Sequence record: ON286975
Length of the DNA: 64,000 nt
DNA from: Escherichia phage I29
Strand: one strand, 5' to 3'
The translations under genes and the position numbers were made by a program. Positions 2,824 to 16,367 of this stretch are shown here, in pieces (position 1 is the stretch's first letter; each line of letters begins with the position of its first letter). The notes beneath the pieces were generated by a model, which saw only the letters and a list, made by a program, of their open reading frames with translations, was not told where the DNA came from and ran no database searches.

Positions 2824-3642
2824 TTGAGCAAGAAAGAGTCCAACGACAAATATTACACAAACCCTGAGTATGCAGAATATCTTGTTGGTAAAGTAAAAGA
2901 TAAGTATGGAAATTGTGCATACGTTGAGCCTTCTGCTGGAAGAGGTTCTTTTTCAAAACTATTTTCAGAGATACTGTCGTACGATTTAGTACCAGATCCT
3001 GAATTTGAAGGGCCAACACCGTGCATTCAGGCAAACTTCTTGGAGGTGCACCCCAAGGCAGATGTCTTCATAGGTAACCCACCATTTGGCAAGAATTCAT
3101 CTTTAGCTTGCAAATTCTTCAACCATTGTGCATCATTGCTAGAGCTTGGAGGGGCCATAGCCTTCATCTTGCCACGGACATTTGAAAAAATATTTTTTGC
3201 AAACAAATTGGACATGTCGATGCACCTTGTCTACAGCGAAAGGTGCCCTAAGAATTCGTTTTTACTTAATGGCAAACCTTATGACGTGCCGTGTGTTTTC
3301 CAAATTTGGGAGAAAAAGGCGTGTAATAGGGATCCTGTAGAGATTGGAGAGAATAAGTTATTTTCTTTTAGCACTCCAGATGACTACGACTTCTGTGTAA
3401 GACGTGTTGGGTATAATGCTGGAAAAGTATTGGGGGATGATGACCCAAAATCTGAAGAATCGACATATTTCATAAAATCTTTAGTTGACGGTGTTGACAG
3501 AGTGTTTTCTGAATGCTATTCTTCTTTTCAAGAAGAAGCAGGTAAGACTGCCGGAATGAAGAGTATAGGCAAGAAAGAACTACAATACATTTTGGAGACC
3601 AGGTATGATCAAAAGCATAGACTTGACCAAAGAACTCACTGA
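2824..3642 (+). CDS. DNA N6-adenine methyltransferase
   Basis: Motif I EPSAGRGSF, motif IV NPPFG, YYT N-terminal motif; start placed at in-frame TTG after terminator hairpin and GGAGG (track ORF begins 2794). Confidence 0.65.
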   Translation: MSKKESNDKYYTNPEYAEYLVGKVKDKYGNCAYVEPSAGRGSFSKLFSEILSYDLVPDPEFEGPTPCIQANFLEVHPKADVFIGNPPFGKNSSLACKFFNHCASLLELGGAIAFILPRTFEKIFFANKLDMSMHLVYSERCPKNSFLLNGKPYDVPCVFQIWEKKACNRDPVEIGENKLFSFSTPDDYDFCVRRVGYNAGKVLGDDDPKSEESTYFIKSLVDGVDRVFSECYSSFQEEAGKTAGMKSIGKKELQYILETRYDQKHRLDQRTH

Positions 3643-4063
3643 TGCGAAAGCTTTTGGTGAGACAGCGGTACAAAGGGGGCAGGCAATGGGACTGGCACTA
3701 CCTTTCGTCTTAAAAGAGCACTTTACAGATTTTCAACTTATCAAGGGCGATAAGGGAATGCTTATCCTGGAGCATAAGTTGAGTAAGAAACGCTATAAAG
3801 TTGTTTTTAATTCTAAAGCTCCAACAAAACTGGGATTCAGAACTTACAATCTTAACCCATCCTACACTAAGGGTGTTGGAAGGGTAGAACAACAGCATTT
3901 CAGTGCCAGAGCTTCTTTAGCCCCTTTGATGCTAAATTTCTCAGGGGTGGCTTTAGGATACCTTGATAAGAAAAGAGTTCTTCATGTCCGTTTCACAGAC
4001 TTTGTAACGCTTTTAGCTAACAACGAGGTTGATGAAAAGGGACGTGTAAAAACAAACTTCTAA
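3605..4063 (+). CDS. hypothetical protein
   Basis: 152-aa ORF on cluster strand, overlaps methyltransferase 3' end. Confidence 0.4.
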   Translation: MIKSIDLTKELTDAKAFGETAVQRGQAMGLALPFVLKEHFTDFQLIKGDKGMLILEHKLSKKRYKVVFNSKAPTKLGFRTYNLNPSYTKGVGRVEQQHFSARASLAPLMLNFSGVALGYLDKKRVLHVRFTDFVTLLANNEVDEKGRVKTNF

Positions 4064-4090
4064 TAACGCATAATATGATTGGAGACCACA

Positions 4091-4282
4091 ATGACACTAA
4101 AGTTAACAATTCCAGACAGCTTTTCAGAAAACTTTATCCCAGAAATGATGAGTAAGATGCGATCATTGCTTGATCAGATTGAGGAGGCTGTTTGGGAAGA
4201 CGATGCTGTAGTGGCTAACGAGCTGGTAGATAAGTGTAAAAGTATTATTGATGCAGTTGAAGAATACCACGGAGGTTTTTGA
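4091..4282 (+). CDS. hypothetical protein
   Basis: ATG 4091 preceded by GGAG; stop overlaps next start (ATGA). Confidence 0.4.
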   Translation: MTLKLTIPDSFSENFIPEMMSKMRSLLDQIEEAVWEDDAVVANELVDKCKSIIDAVEEYHGGF

Positions 4283-4896
4283 TGGATATTATTGTTCTTA
4301 ACGCCCCACCCAGCAGTGGTAAGGATCACATTGCAGATCTCTTGTTGGAAGCTATTCCTAACTCACACCACCGTGAGGTTAAGGAGATGCTCTTCAGTGT
4401 GGCAATTAAGGCAGCTGGTGTAACTCCTCAACTCTGGAATGCCCTTTATGACCGCCACTACAAAGAAGAGCCTTGCCCTTTCTTAATGATAGACGGCAAG
4501 CATGTTTCTCCGCGAGAATGGATGATCCATTGTAGTGAAAATCTGATTAAACCTATCTTTGGTGAAGATGCTTTCGGTAAAGCCGCAGTCACATCTTTGA
4601 AGAAAGATTTCCCTGAAGGTAAAGGGGTTATTGTTTACTCCGATGGGGGATTCAAAGAGGAGCTGGCATGCCTTAGTGAGTACGCATACAGTACAGGTGG
4701 AGATCTGTTGTTGTTCCGTATTCACCGTGTAGGATATGACTGGGGAAATGATTCCAGAACCTACCTAAGTCTGGAAAAGAACGGAATAAAAGGGGTTGAG
4801 TTTGATGTTGTAAACCCTGAAGGTGCACCTTGGGAGTGTGCATCGGAGATTGTGTGCAAGTATATTGATGCTAAAGAGGCCCAAGAAGAATGTTAA
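4279..4896 (+). CDS. deoxynucleoside monophosphate kinase-like P-loop protein
   Basis: N-terminal P-loop-like NAPPSSGKD HIADLL, resembling phage dNMP kinases. Confidence 0.5.
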   Translation: MMDIIVLNAPPSSGKDHIADLLLEAIPNSHHREVKEMLFSVAIKAAGVTPQLWNALYDRHYKEEPCPFLMIDGKHVSPREWMIHCSENLIKPIFGEDAFGKAAVTSLKKDFPEGKGVIVYSDGGFKEELACLSEYAYSTGGDLLLFRIHRVGYDWGNDSRTYLSLEKNGIKGVEFDVVNPEGAPWECASEIVCKYIDAKEAQEEC

Positions 4897-9819: not shown

Positions 9820-10908
9820 ATGGCTGTATTTAATGCTGAGAACACCGCTCATAAAACTGGTGACTATCCGCTGTTTCTGGGACAGCAAATGGGTATGTAC
9901 GACTCTATCAACAAAAAATATCCACAACTGTTTGAACTATACAAAAAACAAAAAGAGCAAGATTGGGCAGAGGATGAAGTGGATTTGTCGCAATCTATTT
10001 CAGATTTTGTAACATGCTCAAAGTCAACTTATGACGTGATGGTACAGACCTTGATGTGGCAATGGGAGGCTGATAGCGTTGCGGCAAGATCGATCATCTG
10101 CCTCTTTTCACCATTCATCACTAATAGTGAGCTTTTCACTCTATTGATGAAACAGTCAGAGATTGAAGTTCTTCACGCACTAACTTACTCAGAGATTGTT
10201 AGACAATGCCTCCCCAATGCCCGTGAGATTATAGAAGAGATTCAGGAAAACCAAAACGTTCTGAGCAGATCCGGCGTTATTGTCAAATACATGCAAGAGC
10301 TTGAGGTTATTGGTGCAAAATACCGCCTGGATCCTTCTAGTGTTGAAGAAGATATTGTGCGGAAATGCATTCTTAGAGCGCTTTTTGCACTTTTAGCCCT
10401 GGAAAGTATTGAGTTTATTGCAAGTTTTGCATGCACTTTCGCAGTAGCTGAACAGGGTATTTTTGTTCAGGTGGCGCAGCTTGTTCAAAAAATCATGCTT
10501 GACGAAATGCTACATTCGAAAGGTGATTTTGCCATCATTGATATCTTGCTTAACGATCCCGCATGGGAGAAAAGCTTCCTGGAGATAAAAGGGGAGTTAA
10601 AAGAGATTCTTGATGAAGTACGAACCAAAGAGTACGGTTGGAGTGACTATATTTTCAGCGAAGGAAGAGCGATTATAGGTCTTAACTCACCGTTGCTTAA
10701 AGAATGGGTTGACTATAACTGCTCACCGATTTATGATTACTACGACATCGACAAAGACTTTGTGCCGCCAACAAAGGACCCGCTACCGTTTATGCAGGTG
10801 TGGATGAAACCTTCATTGCAACAGACGGCGAACCAAGAAATGTCGAACACTGACTACCGCGTCAACACAACTGTTAACGACGCTGAAGAAGAAATTTGGG
10901 AGTTTTAA
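9820..10908 (+). CDS. nrdB: ribonucleoside-diphosphate reductase beta subunit
   Basis: ATG 9820 after hairpin and GAGGTAGAAT; ferritin-like ExxH (DEMLHSKGDF); directly follows nrdA. Confidence 0.8.
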   Translation: MAVFNAENTAHKTGDYPLFLGQQMGMYDSINKKYPQLFELYKKQKEQDWAEDEVDLSQSISDFVTCSKSTYDVMVQTLMWQWEADSVAARSIICLFSPFITNSELFTLLMKQSEIEVLHALTYSEIVRQCLPNAREIIEEIQENQNVLSRSGVIVKYMQELEVIGAKYRLDPSSVEEDIVRKCILRALFALLALESIEFIASFACTFAVAEQGIFVQVAQLVQKIMLDEMLHSKGDFAIIDILLNDPAWEKSFLEIKGELKEILDEVRTKEYGWSDYIFSEGRAIIGLNSPLLKEWVDYNCSPIYDYYDIDKDFVPPTKDPLPFMQVWMKPSLQQTANQEMSNTDYRVNTTVNDAEEEIWEF

Positions 10909-10911
10909 TAT

Positions 10912-11190
10912 ATGAGCTGCGAAAAATCTTTTTTCATCATCATTTACGGTAAGGATAACTGCCCACATTGTGTCAGAGCAAAAGAATTTGCAATCAGCAA
11001 AGGTCTGCCTTTTGTATATAAGACACTTGGCGAGGGCTACACAAAAGAAGAGCTTATTGAGAAGTGTAGTCCAATCGTCCCCCGAACGTTGCCGCAGATC
11101 TTCTTAGAAAGCGATCTTGACAGTATCCATATAGGCGGTGCCGACGATTTCATCTCTTTTGTTAAGAATGGTTTTGGAGAGAAAAAGTGA
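10912..11190 (+). CDS. glutaredoxin/NrdH-like redoxin
   Basis: CPHC thioredoxin-fold active site near N-terminus; 92 aa; between nrdB and nrdD. Confidence 0.75.
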   Translation: MSCEKSFFIIIYGKDNCPHCVRAKEFAISKGLPFVYKTLGEGYTKEELIEKCSPIVPRTLPQIFLESDLDSIHIGGADDFISFVKNGFGEKK

Positions 11191-13325
11191 AAGTTGTAAA
11201 ACGGGACGGTAGAGAAGAGTTCTATAACGGAATTAAGGTGATCAAGGCGGCAGAGTCCGCCTTACTTGAGTCTGGACATACTGAAGAAGAAGCTTACCGG
11301 ATCGCTTGTGCGGTTAATGAAGTTGTTGCTAACAATCTGCCAACCGACCAGTGCACGATCTCTGTAAAAAATATCCATATCCTTGTTGAAGATGCTCTTA
11401 TGGATATGGGTTTAAAATGTGCAGCCAGAGAATACATCCAGTATAGACAGACAAGAGATAATAACAGAGAGGCAGGTGGAAAACTGCTTGCAGATATTAG
11501 TGGCTTCTTGGATCGAACTTGTGATGAATTTACAAAAGAAAACGCAAATAAGCCCACTAATCATGTACACACTCATCGTGACCTGCTTGCAGGCATCCTT
11601 AGCAAACACCTTGCATCAACACAGATCCTGCCAGACCGTGTCTCCGAAGAGCACAATAAAGGCTTCATCCATGTGCATGATCTTGACTACTTGATCAGTC
11701 CGTTAACAAACTGTTGTTTGGTAAATTATCCAGATATGCTGGAAAACGGATTCAACATTGGTAACGCCCATGTCAGTAAGCCGAAGTCAATAGGGGTTGC
11801 AACAACAATCCTTAGCCAAATCTCCAGTGCGGTAGCTAGTGCTCAATATGGTGGTCAGACTATGAGCCATATTGATCATTATCTGGCACAGTATGCTGAA
11901 GCGACCTATGAGAAGAACCTTAAATTTTGCCAGGAACATTGGTTGCCAGATGCTGAGACCGTTGCAATGCAAATGACAGATAAAGACGTGTTTGACAGCA
12001 TGCAGACTTTGCTCTATCAAATCAATACGTTAACCTCTGTCAACGGGCAAACTCCATTCATCACATTAAGTTTAGGACTGGATACCTCGGTCTTTGGTAG
12101 AATGATTACCAAAAATTACTTGAAAGTCCACAAAATGGGTCTTGGTGAAGAACGGATCACACCTGTGTTCCCTAAAGTGCTGTTCTTCCTAGAAGAGGGT
12201 GTCAACATGAGCCCTAGAGATCCTAACTATGATTTGAAACGATTAGCTCTGGAATGCTGTGCAGAACGTATCTATCCTGACTTCGTATCTGTACCACTAA
12301 ATAGAAAAGTGACAGGCTCGACAGATGGCAAAGTAACGAGCATGGGTTGCCGGAGTTTTCTTAGCAAATACAATGACTTGGAAACAGGCGAGGAGAAATA
12401 CCTTGGCAGATTTAACTTAGGCGTTGTTAGCCTTAACCTGCCAATGATTGCGGCAAAAGCTAAGACGGAAGGTGTTGATTTCTTTGCAGTTCTTGACGAA
12501 TACTTAGATCTTGCATACGAGGCTCACCTTGTAAGGGTTAACCGTCTAAAAGGAACAAAGGCAGGGCAGAACCCCATCATGTGGTGTGAAGGCGCTCTTG
12601 CTCGCCTGGATCCTGAAGAAAGTATTGATAAACTCTTCTATGACGGGTACGCTTCCATCAGCATTGGGTACATTGGTGTGTATGAAACCTGTCAGATTTT
12701 GGGCAGAGAAGGTGACAAGGCTTTAGCTCTTGGAATCCTTCAGCACATGAGAGATGCTTGTGAGCGATACAAGAAGGAAAGTAGACTAGCATTTAGCTTG
12801 TACGGCACTCCTTCTGAGAGTCTATGCTATAAAGCTGCAACCTGTCTGGATCGTGAATATCCAGAAGTGTTAAAGCACGAGCATGAATATCTCACCAACA
12901 GTTTCCATCAGCCAGTATGGATCAATAGCTCTCCTTTTGATAAGTGGGAGTATGAGGAAGGTTTTGCTATGATCTCCTCCGGTGGCAACATCGGATACGT
13001 AGAGACACCTAACCTGAAAAACAACCTTGATGCTTTAGAGGCTCTTGTTGACTTCGGGTATAAACACATTATGTATTTTGGTATTAACCAACCTGTGGAT
13101 AAATGTCTCAAGTGTGGTTTCTCTGGTGAGTTCAGTGCAACAGCTAAAGGGTTCTGCTGCCCTGCGTGCGGATGCCACGATGAACAATATATCTCAGTGA
13201 TCCGAAGAGTGTCTGGCTATCTCTCCAGCCCGAACAGTAGGCCGTATAACACAGGTAAACAAGCAGAGGTTATCGAACGTGTTAAACATGTTGGGAATGT
13301 AGACTGTTGTCCGTTGAGTAAATAA
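11187..13325 (+). CDS. nrdD: anaerobic ribonucleoside-triphosphate reductase
   Basis: GTG start after GGAGAG; N-terminal ATP-cone (MKVVKRDGREEFY); C-terminal glycyl-radical RVSGYL and CxxC...CxxC. Confidence 0.9.
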   Translation: MKVVKRDGREEFYNGIKVIKAAESALLESGHTEEEAYRIACAVNEVVANNLPTDQCTISVKNIHILVEDALMDMGLKCAAREYIQYRQTRDNNREAGGKLLADISGFLDRTCDEFTKENANKPTNHVHTHRDLLAGILSKHLASTQILPDRVSEEHNKGFIHVHDLDYLISPLTNCCLVNYPDMLENGFNIGNAHVSKPKSIGVATTILSQISSAVASAQYGGQTMSHIDHYLAQYAEATYEKNLKFCQEHWLPDAETVAMQMTDKDVFDSMQTLLYQINTLTSVNGQTPFITLSLGLDTSVFGRMITKNYLKVHKMGLGEERITPVFPKVLFFLEEGVNMSPRDPNYDLKRLALECCAERIYPDFVSVPLNRKVTGSTDGKVTSMGCRSFLSKYNDLETGEEKYLGRFNLGVVSLNLPMIAAKAKTEGVDFFAVLDEYLDLAYEAHLVRVNRLKGTKAGQNPIMWCEGALARLDPEESIDKLFYDGYASISIGYIGVYETCQILGREGDKALALGILQHMRDACERYKKESRLAFSLYGTPSESLCYKAATCLDREYPEVLKHEHEYLTNSFHQPVWINSSPFDKWEYEEGFAMISSGGNIGYVETPNLKNNLDALEALVDFGYKHIMYFGINQPVDKCLKCGFSGEFSATAKGFCCPACGCHDEQYISVIRRVSGYLSSPNSRPYNTGKQAEVIERVKHVGNVDCCPLSK

Positions 13326-13336
13326 GGAAAGAGGTG

Positions 13337-13369
13337 GAGAGCAAGGATGCTCTCATTTTTTTTTTTTTT
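13337..13369 (+). terminator. strong intrinsic terminator after nrdD
   Basis: gagagc-aaggat-gctctc hairpin followed by a 14-T run. Confidence 0.7.
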
Positions 13370-13376
13370 GTTTTTA

Positions 13377-13405
13377 TTGACTTCTATTCCTCTTTTCTAT
13401 AGTAT
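13377..13405 (+). promoter_or_regulatory. sigma70-type promoter
   Basis: TTGACT-17-TAGTAT upstream of ORF 13444. Confidence 0.5.
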
Positions 13406-13443
13406 GCAATATAAAGTGAATAGCGGAAGGGTCTGGTCTGGTA

Positions 13444-14376
13444 ATGAGAAGACTAACAACCGAAGAGTTTATAGAAAAAGCTCAGACTATACATGGTGAC
13501 AAATATGATTACTTCAAAGTGGAGTATAAAAACAACAAGACACCTGTGTGTATAATTTGTCCTGAGCACGGTGAGTTCTGGCAAACCCCTGTGGCACATG
13601 CTTTCAAGAATCATGGTTGTCCAAGGTGTGGTGGGTCAGCGAAAAAGAACACTGAAGAGTTCATAAAAGAGGCTATGGCTGTTCATGGGGACAAGTACGA
13701 TTACTCATTAGTCAAATATGCGAACATGAGAACGCCTGTAAAAATTGTTTGCCCTGAACACGGTGTGTTTGAACAATACCCTGAAAACCACTTATACCAA
13801 AGAAACGGCTGCCCAGAGTGCTATGACTTAAGACGTGGGCAAAGTCAAGCGTTAACCCATAAGGAGCATGCTGCAATTATCCACAAAGCCAACCCAGACA
13901 TAGAAATATTAGAGAAAATTGCCAATGATAACACAAAAGTGCAATGTAGGTGCAAAATTTGTGGGTATAAGTGGTCTGCTAAACCTAATAACCTAAAAAG
14001 TGGTCGTGGCTGCTGTAAATGCGCACAAAATGGATTCTTATCTCATGAGTACGGTAAACTCTACATTATGGTTGATGACTTAGAAGTGCCAACACTTATG
14101 AAAATCGGTGTATGCGTTAAAATGCACAGGAGGAAAAATGAGGTGCTTAACAGTGCTCGTAAATCTGGCGCAGGTGTCCACACTCTTCACGTAGTAAAAA
14201 CATGGAGCGGATCAACTCAAAACATGGTAGATTTAGAAAAATCTGTGCATAAGGCCTTGAGCAAGTATAAAATAAACTTTCCTGTAAAATTTGACGGTAG
14301 CACTGAGTTTTTCTACTACAGGCCTGAAGTGTTTGACACGGTAGAAGAGGTATACAAGAAGATTTGTGGTAAATGA
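13444..14376 (+). CDS. free-standing homing endonuclease-like protein (tandem zinc-ribbon repeats, GIY-YIG-like C-terminus, tentative)
   Basis: Three repeats of HGDKYDY...CPEHGxFxQxP..H...GCPxCGG; C-terminal KLYIMVDD...LMKIGV...RR..E resembles GIY-YIG; inserted between nrdD and nrdG with own promoter and terminator. Confidence 0.45.
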   Translation: MRRLTTEEFIEKAQTIHGDKYDYFKVEYKNNKTPVCIICPEHGEFWQTPVAHAFKNHGCPRCGGSAKKNTEEFIKEAMAVHGDKYDYSLVKYANMRTPVKIVCPEHGVFEQYPENHLYQRNGCPECYDLRRGQSQALTHKEHAAIIHKANPDIEILEKIANDNTKVQCRCKICGYKWSAKPNNLKSGRGCCKCAQNGFLSHEYGKLYIMVDDLEVPTLMKIGVCVKMHRRKNEVLNSARKSGAGVHTLHVVKTWSGSTQNMVDLEKSVHKALSKYKINFPVKFDGSTEFFYYRPEVFDTVEEVYKKICGK

Positions 14377-14428
14377 TTGTAGAAAGATATGCATATCTTA
14401 AACATGCTATTAACTAAGGAGGTGCAGT

Positions 14429-14545
14429 ATGTCATCAGGTATTTATAAAATTTGCAAGTGCGGCTGTAGTTGCAATCTTCGTTGGTGCAAGGCACTAGAC
14501 GATTTTATTTGGCATTGCCCTAAATGTGATGCGGAGTATCTATGA
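14429..14545 (+). CDS. small Cys-rich (zinc-ribbon-like) protein, 38 aa
   Basis: MSSGIYKICKCGCSCNLRWCKALDDFIWHCPKCDAEYL; AAGGAGG RBS; stop overlaps nrdG ATG (ATGA coupling); below track length cutoff. Confidence 0.5.
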   Translation: MSSGIYKICKCGCSCNLRWCKALDDFIWHCPKCDAEYL

Positions 14546-15015
14546 ACATTGTCGGATACACAGAAATATCTTACACCGAAGGGCCAGGTATTAGAACTGC
14601 CTTGTGGGTATCTGGGTGCCCACACGCTTGCCCTGGTTGCTTTAATCAGGCATTTTGGTCAAAAGATAAGGGGAGGGAGTTCACTGAAGAAGACTTGCAA
14701 AAAATCTTGTCAGATTTAGATAACCCGTCTGTGTGCGGTATCTCTCTGCTGGGTGGAGAACCCTTAGCATACTATAATGAGCCAGATATTATTAGCCTGA
14801 TGGAGAAAATTAAGGAAAAATTTGGTGACAAGAAAACTATTCTTGTATATACTGGGTTCACATTTGACCATATCTCTAGTGATGTTCTTAAACTGGCTGA
14901 TATCATCATTGACGGTAAGTATGTAAAAGATTTACCAACCAAGAAACCGTTCCGAGGCAGTGATAACCAAAGAATGTTTAAAAAAGTATCAGGCGGTTGG
15001 GTTCAGGTAGACTAG
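14542..15015 (+). CDS. nrdG: anaerobic ribonucleotide reductase activating protein (radical SAM)
   Basis: CPHACPGC (CxxxCxxC) radical-SAM motif; 157 aa; follows nrdD. Confidence 0.85.
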   Translation: MNIVGYTEISYTEGPGIRTALWVSGCPHACPGCFNQAFWSKDKGREFTEEDLQKILSDLDNPSVCGISLLGGEPLAYYNEPDIISLMEKIKEKFGDKKTILVYTGFTFDHISSDVLKLADIIIDGKYVKDLPTKKPFRGSDNQRMFKKVSGGWVQVD

Positions 15016-15018
15016 TTG

Positions 15019-15048
15019 TTGACAAAGCTTTGTTTAGATAGGTATAAT
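15019..15048 (+). promoter_or_regulatory. sigma70-type promoter
   Basis: TTGACA-18-TATAAT. Confidence 0.6.
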
Positions 15049-15079
15049 TATCGTAAAATGAAAGTAGAGGAGGTGCCAA

Positions 15080-15193
15080 ATGGCTAAAAAAGCCTTGAAG
15101 AAGGCGTACAAGAAAGAGATTGCGCTTGAGCTTAAGAAAAAACACAAGCGTGAAAAGAAACATCATGGAGATGAAGAGGGGGTGCAACAGTGA
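15080..15193 (+). CDS. small lysine-rich protein, 37 aa
   Basis: MAKKALKKAYKKEIALELKKKHKREKKHHGDEEGVQQ; GAGGAGG RBS; stop overlaps next start. Confidence 0.4.
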   Translation: MAKKALKKAYKKEIALELKKKHKREKKHHGDEEGVQQ

Positions 15194-15540
15194 CACAAGA
15201 ACGTATCGATTTGGCTAATAAGTTTGTAGATCTCATTTTGCCACGGTTAGTTACTCAACATGCAGATGCTATTTCTACTAATCTTGATGGCTTACGCCTA
15301 ATGCTGAATCGCACAGATGACCCTCGTATTCGGGCTGATTTAGAAGCCTCTGCCAACAAACTGGAAAAGTTCTTGCAAGTAGACACGCAAGAAGCCTTGC
15401 ACAAGATTATGGTGGAAGGTTTCTCTAAAGAATTTACCATTAAAGAGCTTAAGGAGCTGATCCACCAAGAAGAGATGAATATCCGAGTTCAGGCTGTTGC
15501 AAGCAGCATGGAAGCGGCTATTGAAAAACTGTTGCAGTAA
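15190..15540 (+). CDS. hypothetical protein
   Basis: 116-aa ORF, GTG start coupled to upstream small ORF. Confidence 0.45.
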   Translation: MTQERIDLANKFVDLILPRLVTQHADAISTNLDGLRLMLNRTDDPRIRADLEASANKLEKFLQVDTQEALHKIMVEGFSKEFTIKELKELIHQEEMNIRVQAVASSMEAAIEKLLQ

Positions 15541-15578
15541 AAGTACTTGGCACATCTCAATCTGAAAGGAGTCCCAAC

Positions 15579-16367
15579 ATGGGTCGAGCTAAAGAAACAA
15601 AACGCATGCGTGATGAAGCTAGAGAGGCTCGCAAATCTGATCGCTTGCGTAAGGCTGCTGAGAAATTTGCTGACGAAAGAGAGCACACCGCTCCAGCTCT
15701 CCGACCAATGAATAAGAAGCAGCAAAAGTATCTTGATTATCTAGGGTCACGTAAGATTATTATTGTAAACGGTGTGTTTGGATCCGGTAAGACATTTATG
15801 GCATCTGCATATGCAGGTGATCTTCTGCGTAAGAACGAGATTGATAAGATCATTGTTGCACGTCCTTACGTCCAGACAGGAAAGACTTCAGGATTTAAAC
15901 CCGGAAATGCAATTCAGAAACTGTGGCCCTATCTTCGAAGCATGATGGACACGATTTGTCGTCGTGTTGGCAAAGGTGCTTTTGCCGCAATGCTGGGAGA
16001 CGGTCAGAACAGTCGTATCGAGATTTGTGAGGTTGAAAGCATTCGTGGTCGTAGTTTCGATGAGCGATGCTTTGTCCTGATTGACGAGGCACAGCAAACT
16101 AACCCTGAAGAAATGTTGTCAATTATCACAAGGATCTCTGATCAAGCCACCCTTGTAATTATGGGTGATAATAGCCAACGTGACATCCCTGGTAAATCTG
16201 GCCTTGCGTGGGTGACGGATTTCTTTACTCGTCATCCAGATCCTGAGGTTGGAATGATCAGCTTTGATAGTCCAGACGATGTCGTTCGTTCCGGGTTGGG
16301 CCGTCAGATCGCACTCAATCTTATTGAGGATCGTGCAAATCATATTTGGACCCCTGTTTCCGAGTAA
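15579..16367 (+). CDS. phoH: PhoH-like ATPase
   Basis: Walker A GVFGSGKTF; PhoH-like IIVARPYVQTGK; AAAGGAG RBS. Confidence 0.8.
   Translation: MGRAKETKRMRDEAREARKSDRLRKAAEKFADEREHTAPALRPMNKKQQKYLDYLGSRKIIIVNGVFGSGKTFMASAYAGDLLRKNEIDKIIVARPYVQTGKTSGFKPGNAIQKLWPYLRSMMDTICRRVGKGAFAAMLGDGQNSRIEICEVESIRGRSFDERCFVLIDEAQQTNPEEMLSIITRISDQATLVIMGDNSQRDIPGKSGLAWVTDFFTRHPDPEVGMISFDSPDDVVRSGLGRQIALNLIEDRANHIWTPVSE

Follow-up and report, generated by a model that had tools for sequence, protein, structure and literature searches.

A putative T5orf172-family homing endonuclease gene and a resident cysteine-rich small gene between nrdD and nrdG of Escherichia phage I29

Genes of the nrdD-nrdG interval

We analyzed a stretch of 64,000 nucleotides (nt) from Escherichia phage I29 (sequence record ON286975); this whole stretch is referred to as the window, and all positions given without a locus name are window positions. 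Within it, the genes of the anaerobic ribonucleotide reductase and its activase are separated by two further open reading frames (ORFs), one for a predicted endonuclease of 310 amino acids (aa) and one for a cysteine-rich protein of 38 aa. All four lie on the plus strand. The nrdD gene of the anaerobic (class III) ribonucleotide reductase (RNR) occupies positions 11187 to 13325 and is uninterrupted (712 aa; Pfam NRDD, 8.9e-159, with Gly_radical and ATP-cone). It is followed by the 310-aa ORF (13444 to 14376), the 38-aa ORF (14429 to 14545) and nrdG, which encodes the radical-SAM activase of NrdD (14542 to 15015; 157 aa; Pfam Fer4_12, 9.4e-43, and Radical_SAM). A preliminary description, made from the sequence alone, had proposed that the longer ORF is a homing endonuclease insertion and that the shorter one is co-translated with nrdG; its ORFs were all recovered in the ORF list and in the sequence. 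The region is that of a Vequintavirus (rV5-like) coliphage and displayed 92 to 98% identity to the listed records, with Shigella phage CM1 and Escherichia phages inoa and naam as the closest matches. Flanks were analyzed in 17 loci out of roughly 120 related genomes.

The 310-aa protein begins with three tandem treble-clef zinc-ribbon modules (13456 to 14028, plus strand), which were delimited by Pfam, homologues and a structural model and represent a predicted DNA-recognition array. The three repeats noticed at first reading were found at aa 5 to 64, 69 to 128 and 137 to 195, each with a CxxH/CxxC...CxxC pattern. Pfam matches of the modules were to DUF723 (50.2 bits; cut-off, 20.9), CapR (41.0 bits; cut-off, 24.2) and DUF4379 (39.3 bits; cut-off, 24.5). 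C39, C59, C62, C103, C126, C190 and C193 were invariant in the homologues, and C123, C170 and C173 were kept in at least 90% of them. Each module was modelled as a beta-hairpin pair and a helix.

The C-terminal part (aa 197 to 310; 14032 to 14373, plus strand) was assigned by Pfam to the T5orf172 nuclease domain, which according to published work belongs to the GIY-YIG superfamily. The T5orf172 profile (PF10544) matched aa 207 to 307 over its positions 4 to 100 of 101 with 33.4 bits (cut-off, 20), and the MUG113 profile remained below its threshold over the same stretch (20.3 versus 22.3). Comparison of the whole protein with PHROGs returned phrog_681, "endonuclease" (E = 3.8e-65). An AlphaFold model based on 22 homologues reached a mean predicted local distance difference test score (pLDDT) of 87, with values of 92 to 96 in the C-terminal domain, which showed the alpha/beta fold of a GIY-YIG catalytic domain. 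The GIY-YIG-like C terminus of the preliminary description is thus borne out by a profile match above the cut-off and by the modelled fold. Eight residues (Y207, D211, K220, G222, R230, E265, H269 and E288) were invariant across the homologues. Three of them, Y207 (LYI), R230 and E288 (TEFF), were invariant in 18 to 22 homologues, and their equivalence to R27/E75 of I-TevI or E180 of Odn is by motif order only. The start of the protein, MRRLTTEEF, was also conserved. Among five copies of the gene, third codon positions accounted for 11 of 13 variable sites, and 9 changes were synonymous versus 4 that were non-synonymous; by this substitution pattern, the ORF is under purifying selection.

A mobile cassette with several alleles

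About 122 phage records have the nrdD-nrdG region in common, and the inserted DNA (13326 to 14428) was detected in 18 of them. Most relatives carry an empty site instead, with 63 nt between nrdD and the small ORF; examples are Murica, EmilHeitz, HeinrichReichert, FFH2 and an IMG/VR contig. Presence and absence of the cassette were observed among phages that are otherwise 97 to 98% identical and even within species as delimited by the International Committee on Taxonomy of Viruses: the gene is found in naam but not in slur16, and in "Campylobacter phage D1" but not in FFH2. The ORF is therefore not found in all relatives at this position, and it does have a nuclease-family match.

Insertion is accompanied by a divergent left flank. 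In an alignment of the window with Murica, 0 to 9 mismatches per 100 nt were counted across 3.5 kb, but 47 mismatches fell within 13217 to 13373; no excess was seen to the right of the insert. The same alignment delimits a recoded nrdD 3' end that spans codons 677 to 712 (13217 to 13325, plus strand). The start of this tract is the third base of the Gly677 codon, which specifies the glycyl-radical residue (RRVSG677YL). As far as codon 701 the differences are mostly synonymous; there the nrdD tails diverge (...VGNVDCCPLSK* in the window versus ...YGSCGC*). The tract occurs in exactly the same 18 records as the endonuclease ORF. The recoded end is either a co-conversion tract, in other words hitch-hiking donor DNA, or a cleavage-immune variant of the target. 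JEP1 combines the first half of the tract with a standard second half and a different endonuclease allele, which demonstrates recombination within the tract. The extreme C terminus of NrdD after the glycyl-radical motif (13290 to 13325 in the window) is variable and cysteine rich across the loci, with the endings ...YGSCGC*, ...YGSCSC*, ...VGNVDCCPLSK* and, in locus L019, ...HFH*.

The cassette also comprises transcription signals. An intrinsic-terminator-like hairpin (13337 to 13354) followed by an A and 14 T residues (whole feature, 13337 to 13369, plus strand) lies 3' of nrdD, with a folding energy of -15.2 kcal/mol (z = -3.1); in the empty-site allele, another hairpin is present, which lacks the T-run. 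The length of the T-run (13356 to 13369) differs among near-identical copies, with 14 residues in the window, 12 in CM1, 10 in naam and 5 to 6 in D1 and WM. Either slippage in the homopolymer or noise in the sequencing accounts for this variation, which could influence termination. A sigma-70-like promoter candidate was identified upstream of the endonuclease gene (TTGACT-17-TAGTAT; 13377 to 13405, plus strand); its -35 element and spacing recur, together with a -10-like element (TATCAT), in a distant metagenomic copy (locus L020). RNA folding of the spacer between the endonuclease gene and the small ORF, and likewise of the empty-site spacer, was no better than that of shuffled sequence; therefore, no terminator is placed downstream of the 310-aa ORF. 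The gene had been described as bounded by its own terminator and promoter. This holds for the upstream side, where the hairpin with its 14 T residues and a weak promoter-like site are found, and fails for the downstream side. The right border of the insertion (about 14412 to 14415) is sharp and lies just upstream of the Shine-Dalgarno sequence of the small ORF. Alleles with and without the homing endonuclease gene (HEG) are identical from ...AGGAGGTGCAGTATG onward, which is the ribosome-binding site of the small ORF.

At least five other endonuclease alleles were found at the same site, in JEP1 (311 aa), phiWec189, Mangalyan, ECML-10 and the metagenomic locus L020. They carry three to five zinc-ribbon modules in differing combinations, and their C-terminal domains are 53 to 76% identical. 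For WalterGehring and nom, a match to the 3' part of the gene was obtained at the DNA level only. The site is thus occupied by an empty form and at least six alleles with different zinc-ribbon arrays. The L020 copy possesses the window-type ...CPLSK* tail of nrdD, the terminator hairpin and the promoter-like element, and its NrdG is only 55% identical; the window-type cassette recurs in a lineage with 52 to 55% NrdG identity. Since L020 shares all these parts despite its divergent NrdG, the window-type cassette appears to move as a unit of nrdD tail, terminator, promoter and endonuclease gene. One allele had been labelled "putative homing endonuclease" by the BASEL annotators. The ECML-10 record (locus L008, OL631479) contains at about 3480 to 4610 an intact allele of about 375 aa, with five zinc-ribbon modules, a T5orf172 domain and a GTG start, for which there is no annotation; the 3' part of nrdD and nrdG are likewise unannotated in that record.

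The 38-aa cysteine-rich gene

The small ORF encodes the protein MSSGIYKICKCGCSCNLRWCKALDDFIWHCPKCDAEYL, in which seven cysteines fall within 25 residues. It is preceded by the Shine-Dalgarno sequence AAGGAGG (14416 to 14422, plus strand), six nt before the ATG. Its TGA overlaps the ATG of nrdG (ctATGAac), and a GGAG lies seven nt upstream of nrdG inside the small ORF. These features, namely the seven cysteines, the ribosome-binding site and the overlap with the nrdG start, agree with the preliminary description. The ORF was present in 121 phage records. Across 12 distinct sequences, the ratio of non-synonymous to synonymous polymorphism (pN/pS) was 0.11 in frame versus 1.18 and 1.33 off frame, and all seven cysteines were invariant; among 11 Vequintavirus sequences, 18 of 27 variable sites were at codon position 3. 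The protein belongs to phrog_20137 (E = 4.7e-30, positions 1 to 38 of 38). By these conservation measures, the 38-aa ORF is a genuine protein-coding gene under purifying selection. It is resident at the locus and lies outside the mobile cassette.

That the ORF is unannotated, as had been stated, is correct for some records, such as that of Murica; it is annotated in FFH2 (ORF107), in the BASEL phages and in naam, besides being catalogued as phrog_20137. In the rV5 record (locus L015, DQ832317), the annotated ORF 114 (1736 to 1963) overlaps the small ORF (1801 to 1917) in a different frame, and in the Murica record a "terminator" is annotated inside the small ORF. Some records name it "ribonucleotide reductase," apparently from its position alone. 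The NRDD and Gly_radical profiles matched neither the 38-aa ORF nor the relatives of 53 to 54 aa, even at E values of up to 10, and an origin as an NrdD fragment was rejected on these grounds. The family is narrow: a profile search of 1.84 billion representative proteins returned two clusters and no distant relatives that would give functional context.

The ATGA overlap with the following gene is kept in the window type, in the metagenomic lineage represented by loci L019 and L020 and in the SP6-like podovirus vB_EcoP_ACG-C91, there in front of a ligase gene. In the metagenomic lineage, whose NrdG is 52 to 55% identical, a variant of 53 to 54 aa with a Lys/Glu-rich N terminus lies between nrdD (or the endonuclease gene) and nrdG, which is overlapped by ATGA as well. 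Coupling to nrdG, which the preliminary description had suggested, is thus consistent with the arrangement in the window and is not universal: the small ORF of rV5-type phages ends with TAA, about 390 nt from a different nrdG. The intervening stretch in these uncoupled loci (naam, locus L003, 4856 to 5243; rV5, locus L015, 1918 to 2305; also Mangalyan and Alma) holds ORFs of 34 and 78 aa. The 78-aa ORF, named "putative minor capsid protein" and without a Pfam match, is coupled to a second nrdG allele of 54% identity. Because an alternative downstream cassette follows there, the 3' end of the small ORF represents another mosaic boundary. A metagenome contig encodes P0129 (62 aa), a natural fusion in which residues 1 to 20 of the small protein are followed by the C-terminal portion encoded by the 78-aa ORF; it looks like the outcome of a deletion between ...RWC and ...GCHW.

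An AlphaFold2 model of the small protein showed three short beta-strands (pLDDT, 67). Its sequence has a CPKC knuckle, preceded by an aromatic residue, and an upstream cysteine cluster. Comparison with zinc ribbons and with PDB sequence profiles gave sub-threshold zinc-finger matches only (E = 0.003 to 0.35). The CPKC knuckle, the upstream cysteine cluster and the predicted three-stranded sheet are shared with CPxCG micro-proteins and zinc ribbons (haloarchaeal 8q5b, ribosomal eL43 and Zn_ribbon_NUD). These have four cysteines, whereas the small ORF has seven in 25 residues, and the similarity is sub-threshold. Judged by these motifs, the product is probably a zinc-ribbon micro-protein with a CPxC knuckle.

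Interpretation and relation to known systems

We interpret the 310-aa gene as a free-standing HEG of the T5orf172 branch of the GIY-YIG superfamily, inserted next to a resident 38-aa gene, and we assign this joint reading a probability of about 80%. The patchy presence in close relatives, the linked divergent flank and the nuclease-family match support the homing endonuclease insertion proposed at the outset. In relatives without the endonuclease, the zinc-ribbon modules would recognize a DNA site in or close to the 3' end of nrdD and the spacer between nrdD and nrdG, and the C-terminal domain would cut this site in the endonuclease-free allele. Two candidate targets are the nrdD segment that is recoded in carriers (codons 677 to 712), which encodes the most conserved part of the enzyme, and the spacer that is disrupted by the insertion. 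Recombinational repair from a co-infecting genome that carries the endonuclease would then copy the cassette into the 63-nt spacer ("intronless homing"). The copied unit would comprise the variant nrdD 3' end from codon 677, the terminator, the promoter and the endonuclease gene. Because the cassette terminator sits after nrdD, we infer that the promoter candidate probably drives the endonuclease gene, the small ORF and nrdG; the cassette promoter would in this way take over transcription of the two resident genes. The small ORF would be translated just ahead of nrdG, with termination-reinitiation at the ATGA overlap.

Several observations weigh against this joint reading. The promoter candidate is weak and matches 9 of 12 consensus positions. 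The second signature motif of the nuclease domain is M-K220-I-G222, in which a Lys replaces the canonical Tyr of YIG. This Lys is invariant in the family; the KIG motif is typical of T5orf172 and departs from classical GIY-YIG enzymes, and the protein was for this reason filed under T5orf172 and not among the classical enzymes. [quoted passage not shown] A Foldseek search of the whole model against the PDB returned no significant nuclease match, the best relevant hit being Slx1 (E = 0.16). The alleles of phiWec189 and ECML-10 occupy the site without the recoded tract; therefore, the tract may simply be donor sequence and not a mark of target immunity. In the CM1 copy (locus L001, about 4810, corresponding to window position 14236), an extra A in an A-run shifts the frame and truncates the protein before the conserved Glu, which reflects either a decaying copy or a homopolymer sequencing error. 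With respect to the small gene, its ORF is uncoupled from nrdG and ends with TAA in rV5, naam, Mangalyan and Alma. The 77%-identical homologue in ACG-C91 (locus L012, JN986844, 2998 to 3108; unannotated, all seven cysteines kept, 8 synonymous and 5 non-synonymous differences) overlaps with its stop (ATGA) the gene of an ATP-dependent DNA ligase (3105 to 4052) and not nrdG. The small ORF is absent from a more distant phage (locus L005), whose nrdD and nrdG abut. Taken together, these three findings weaken a strict partnership with NrdG.

Two other explanations of the 310-aa gene were considered, both of which we regard as quite improbable. The protein could be a domesticated relative of HEGs and would then not be selfish. 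It might regulate through sequence-specific DNA binding, as does CapR, a repressor from satellites, or be directed against satellites or competing phages, as is Odn of phage ICP1. A CapR-homology domain is indeed detected, the ORF is under purifying selection, and both outcomes have evolved from this family (PMC8096241, PMC8263062, PMC10448857). However, about 80% of close relatives lack the gene, and its presence is variable within species; a linked flanking tract of its own goes with it, the one intergenic site is shared by several other alleles, and the catalytic-type residues are retained. Distribution, tract and alleles therefore form the pattern of a mobile selfish gene and not that of a fixed functional one. 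The other possibility is a recently immobilized or inactive remnant that persists only because the small ORF and nrdG now obtain their promoter from its cassette. The cassette does place a strong terminator after nrdD along with a promoter-like site, embedded promoters favour the retention of endonuclease genes according to a review of T4 (PMC2988022), and the CM1 copy is frameshifted; against this, the window copy is intact with all family-invariant residues in place, and substitutions among copies are mostly synonymous. A free-standing, mobile HEG thus remains our preferred reading of the 310-aa gene.

The role of the 38-aa protein is less certain. From its conserved position only, we tentatively consider that its most likely role is that of a metal-binding accessory of the anaerobic reductase module, at somewhat less than even odds. 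A more specific version appears unlikely: that the protein serves the phage class III RNR as a dedicated third component that binds metal, either a mini-rubredoxin-like electron donor or a partner of NrdG in cluster or zinc handling, kept in a fixed ratio with NrdG by termination-reinitiation. A function unrelated to the reductase is nearly as likely as a role in the reductase module. The protein would then be an independent "moron" or host-takeover zinc-finger micro-protein without a part in ribonucleotide reduction, located upstream of nrdG for historical reasons; this is doubtful but arguable. It would fit the ACG-C91 homologue with its full set of cysteines at the start of a DNA ligase gene, the separation from nrdG in rV5-type phages and the extreme narrowness of the family. 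It fits less well with the finding that all of the roughly 120 Vequintavirus records, and also the lineage with 52 to 55% NrdG identity, have the ORF between nrdD and nrdG, and that the ORF is more conserved (82 to 88% by the tools' measures) than NrdG itself. Finally, the ORF might be a single zinc-ribbon module domesticated from the neighbouring endonuclease family, for example as a protector that binds the target site. Its C-x-C-x-C...W...CPKC visually resembles CRCKICGYKW...GCCKC of module 3, and hhalign gave P = 0.0015, but with a probability of only 17%. The small-ORF profile reached a maximum of 5.3 bits on 120 endonuclease homologues versus 5.9 and 4.5 bits on shuffled and reversed decoys, and Pfam assigned the small ORF no CapR, DUF723 or DUF4379 match. 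Derivation from the endonuclease zinc ribbons, which we consider scarcely credible, was rejected on the basis of the hhalign probability and of an hmmsearch signal that did not exceed the shuffled and reversed decoys.

The endonuclease gene closely resembles HEGs that have been described elsewhere. Zinc-finger arrays of the CapR, DUF723 and DUF4379 types are found in 87% of T5orf172 HEGs (Barth, Dunham & Seed 2023, PMC10448857), RNR genes occur in 33% of their neighbourhoods, and these HEGs lie at genetic-exchange boundaries and show domain swapping among their alleles (PMC10448857). The window gene shares with them the N-terminal zinc-finger repeats combined with a C-terminal T5orf172 domain, the free-standing state next to an RNR gene, the location at the boundary of a mosaic segment and alleles that differ by shuffled DNA-binding modules. 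It differs in that the final 36 nrdD codons, from the glycyl-radical Gly codon onward, are replaced by its cassette as well. The terms "Vequintavir" and "rV5" have no occurrences in that article, which mentions neither this gene nor this phage group. For Odn (Gp88) of ICP1, a T5orf172 nuclease, DNA cleavage has been demonstrated, and its conserved catalytic glutamate was targeted by the E180A exchange (PMC8263062). The two proteins have in common the T5orf172 catalytic domain with the family-conserved Arg and Glu (R230 and E288 in the window protein); in Odn, the DNA-binding domain is of the RepA_N type and the action is directed at the PLE satellite, whereas the window protein carries zinc-ribbon modules and is distributed like a homing element.

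Phage T4 carries mobC between nrdG and nrdD, mobE between nrdA and nrdB, and seg genes of the GIY-YIG type, and its elements have been discussed as "intronless homing" (PMC2988022). The free-standing state, the nrdD/nrdG interval, the co-converted flank and a poorly placed ribosome-binding site are common to the endonuclease genes of the T4 nrd region and the window gene. In contrast, mobC encodes an enzyme of the HNH type, the seg proteins of T4 bind DNA through other domains, the T4 gene order is nrdG-mobC-nrdD, and several T4 cassettes lack promoters, whereas the window cassette appears to bring a terminator and a promoter. The nrdD/nrdG interval is thus already known as an HEG site, and the window gene belongs to a described class that is ordinary for phages.

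Further features were noted around the locus. The grx gene lies at 10912 to 11190. A perfect (12 of 12) sigma-70 consensus promoter, TTGACA-18-TATAAT, is located directly 3' of nrdG (15019 to 15048); in the rV5 annotation it bears the name P118. Behind it come a strong ribosome-binding site and a Lys-rich ORF of 37 aa, MAKKALKKAYKKEIALELKKKHKREKKHHGDEEGVQQ (15080 to 15193), whose stop overlaps the next gene. An Rfam scan of positions 10500 to 15600 returned nothing credible, neither an intron remnant nor a riboswitch, and a paralogue search detected no further copies of the endonuclease gene or the small ORF in the 64-kb window. When IMG/VR was scanned with NrdG, two loci were obtained and no more. 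In several relatives (loci L001, L007, L009, L011, L017 and L019), nrdD is interrupted and appears as a joined coding sequence or as two ORFs. Introns or HNH insertions account for these splits, and an HNH endonuclease gene often lies inside the interrupted nrdD. These HNH-type interruptions and the T5orf172 site in the relatives point to two independent classes of mobile elements that target nrdD. About 20 UNVERIFIED records (MG0656xx, "Campylobacter phage ...", Campylobacter jejuni) are rV5-like Vequintavirus genomes; they are 97 to 98% identical to coliphages over this region, and their host label looks doubtful.

The endonuclease gene confirms the published pattern of T5orf172 HEGs beside essential nucleotide-metabolism genes and at mosaic borders, and its presence here is not surprising. 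For the T5orf172 HEG class, no target site has been identified in the cited T5orf172 literature. The multi-allelic site described here constitutes a well-sampled natural series of an empty form, alleles and recombinant flanks that is usable for seeking such target sites, and BASEL and other isolates exist for crosses. A T5orf172 hotspot with a tract recoded from the glycyl-radical codon would be suited to reading the DNA-recognition code of the zinc ribbons. The small ORF matters for annotation, being missed, called in the wrong frame or misnamed in many records, and it represents a candidate micro-protein partner of the anaerobic reductase module.

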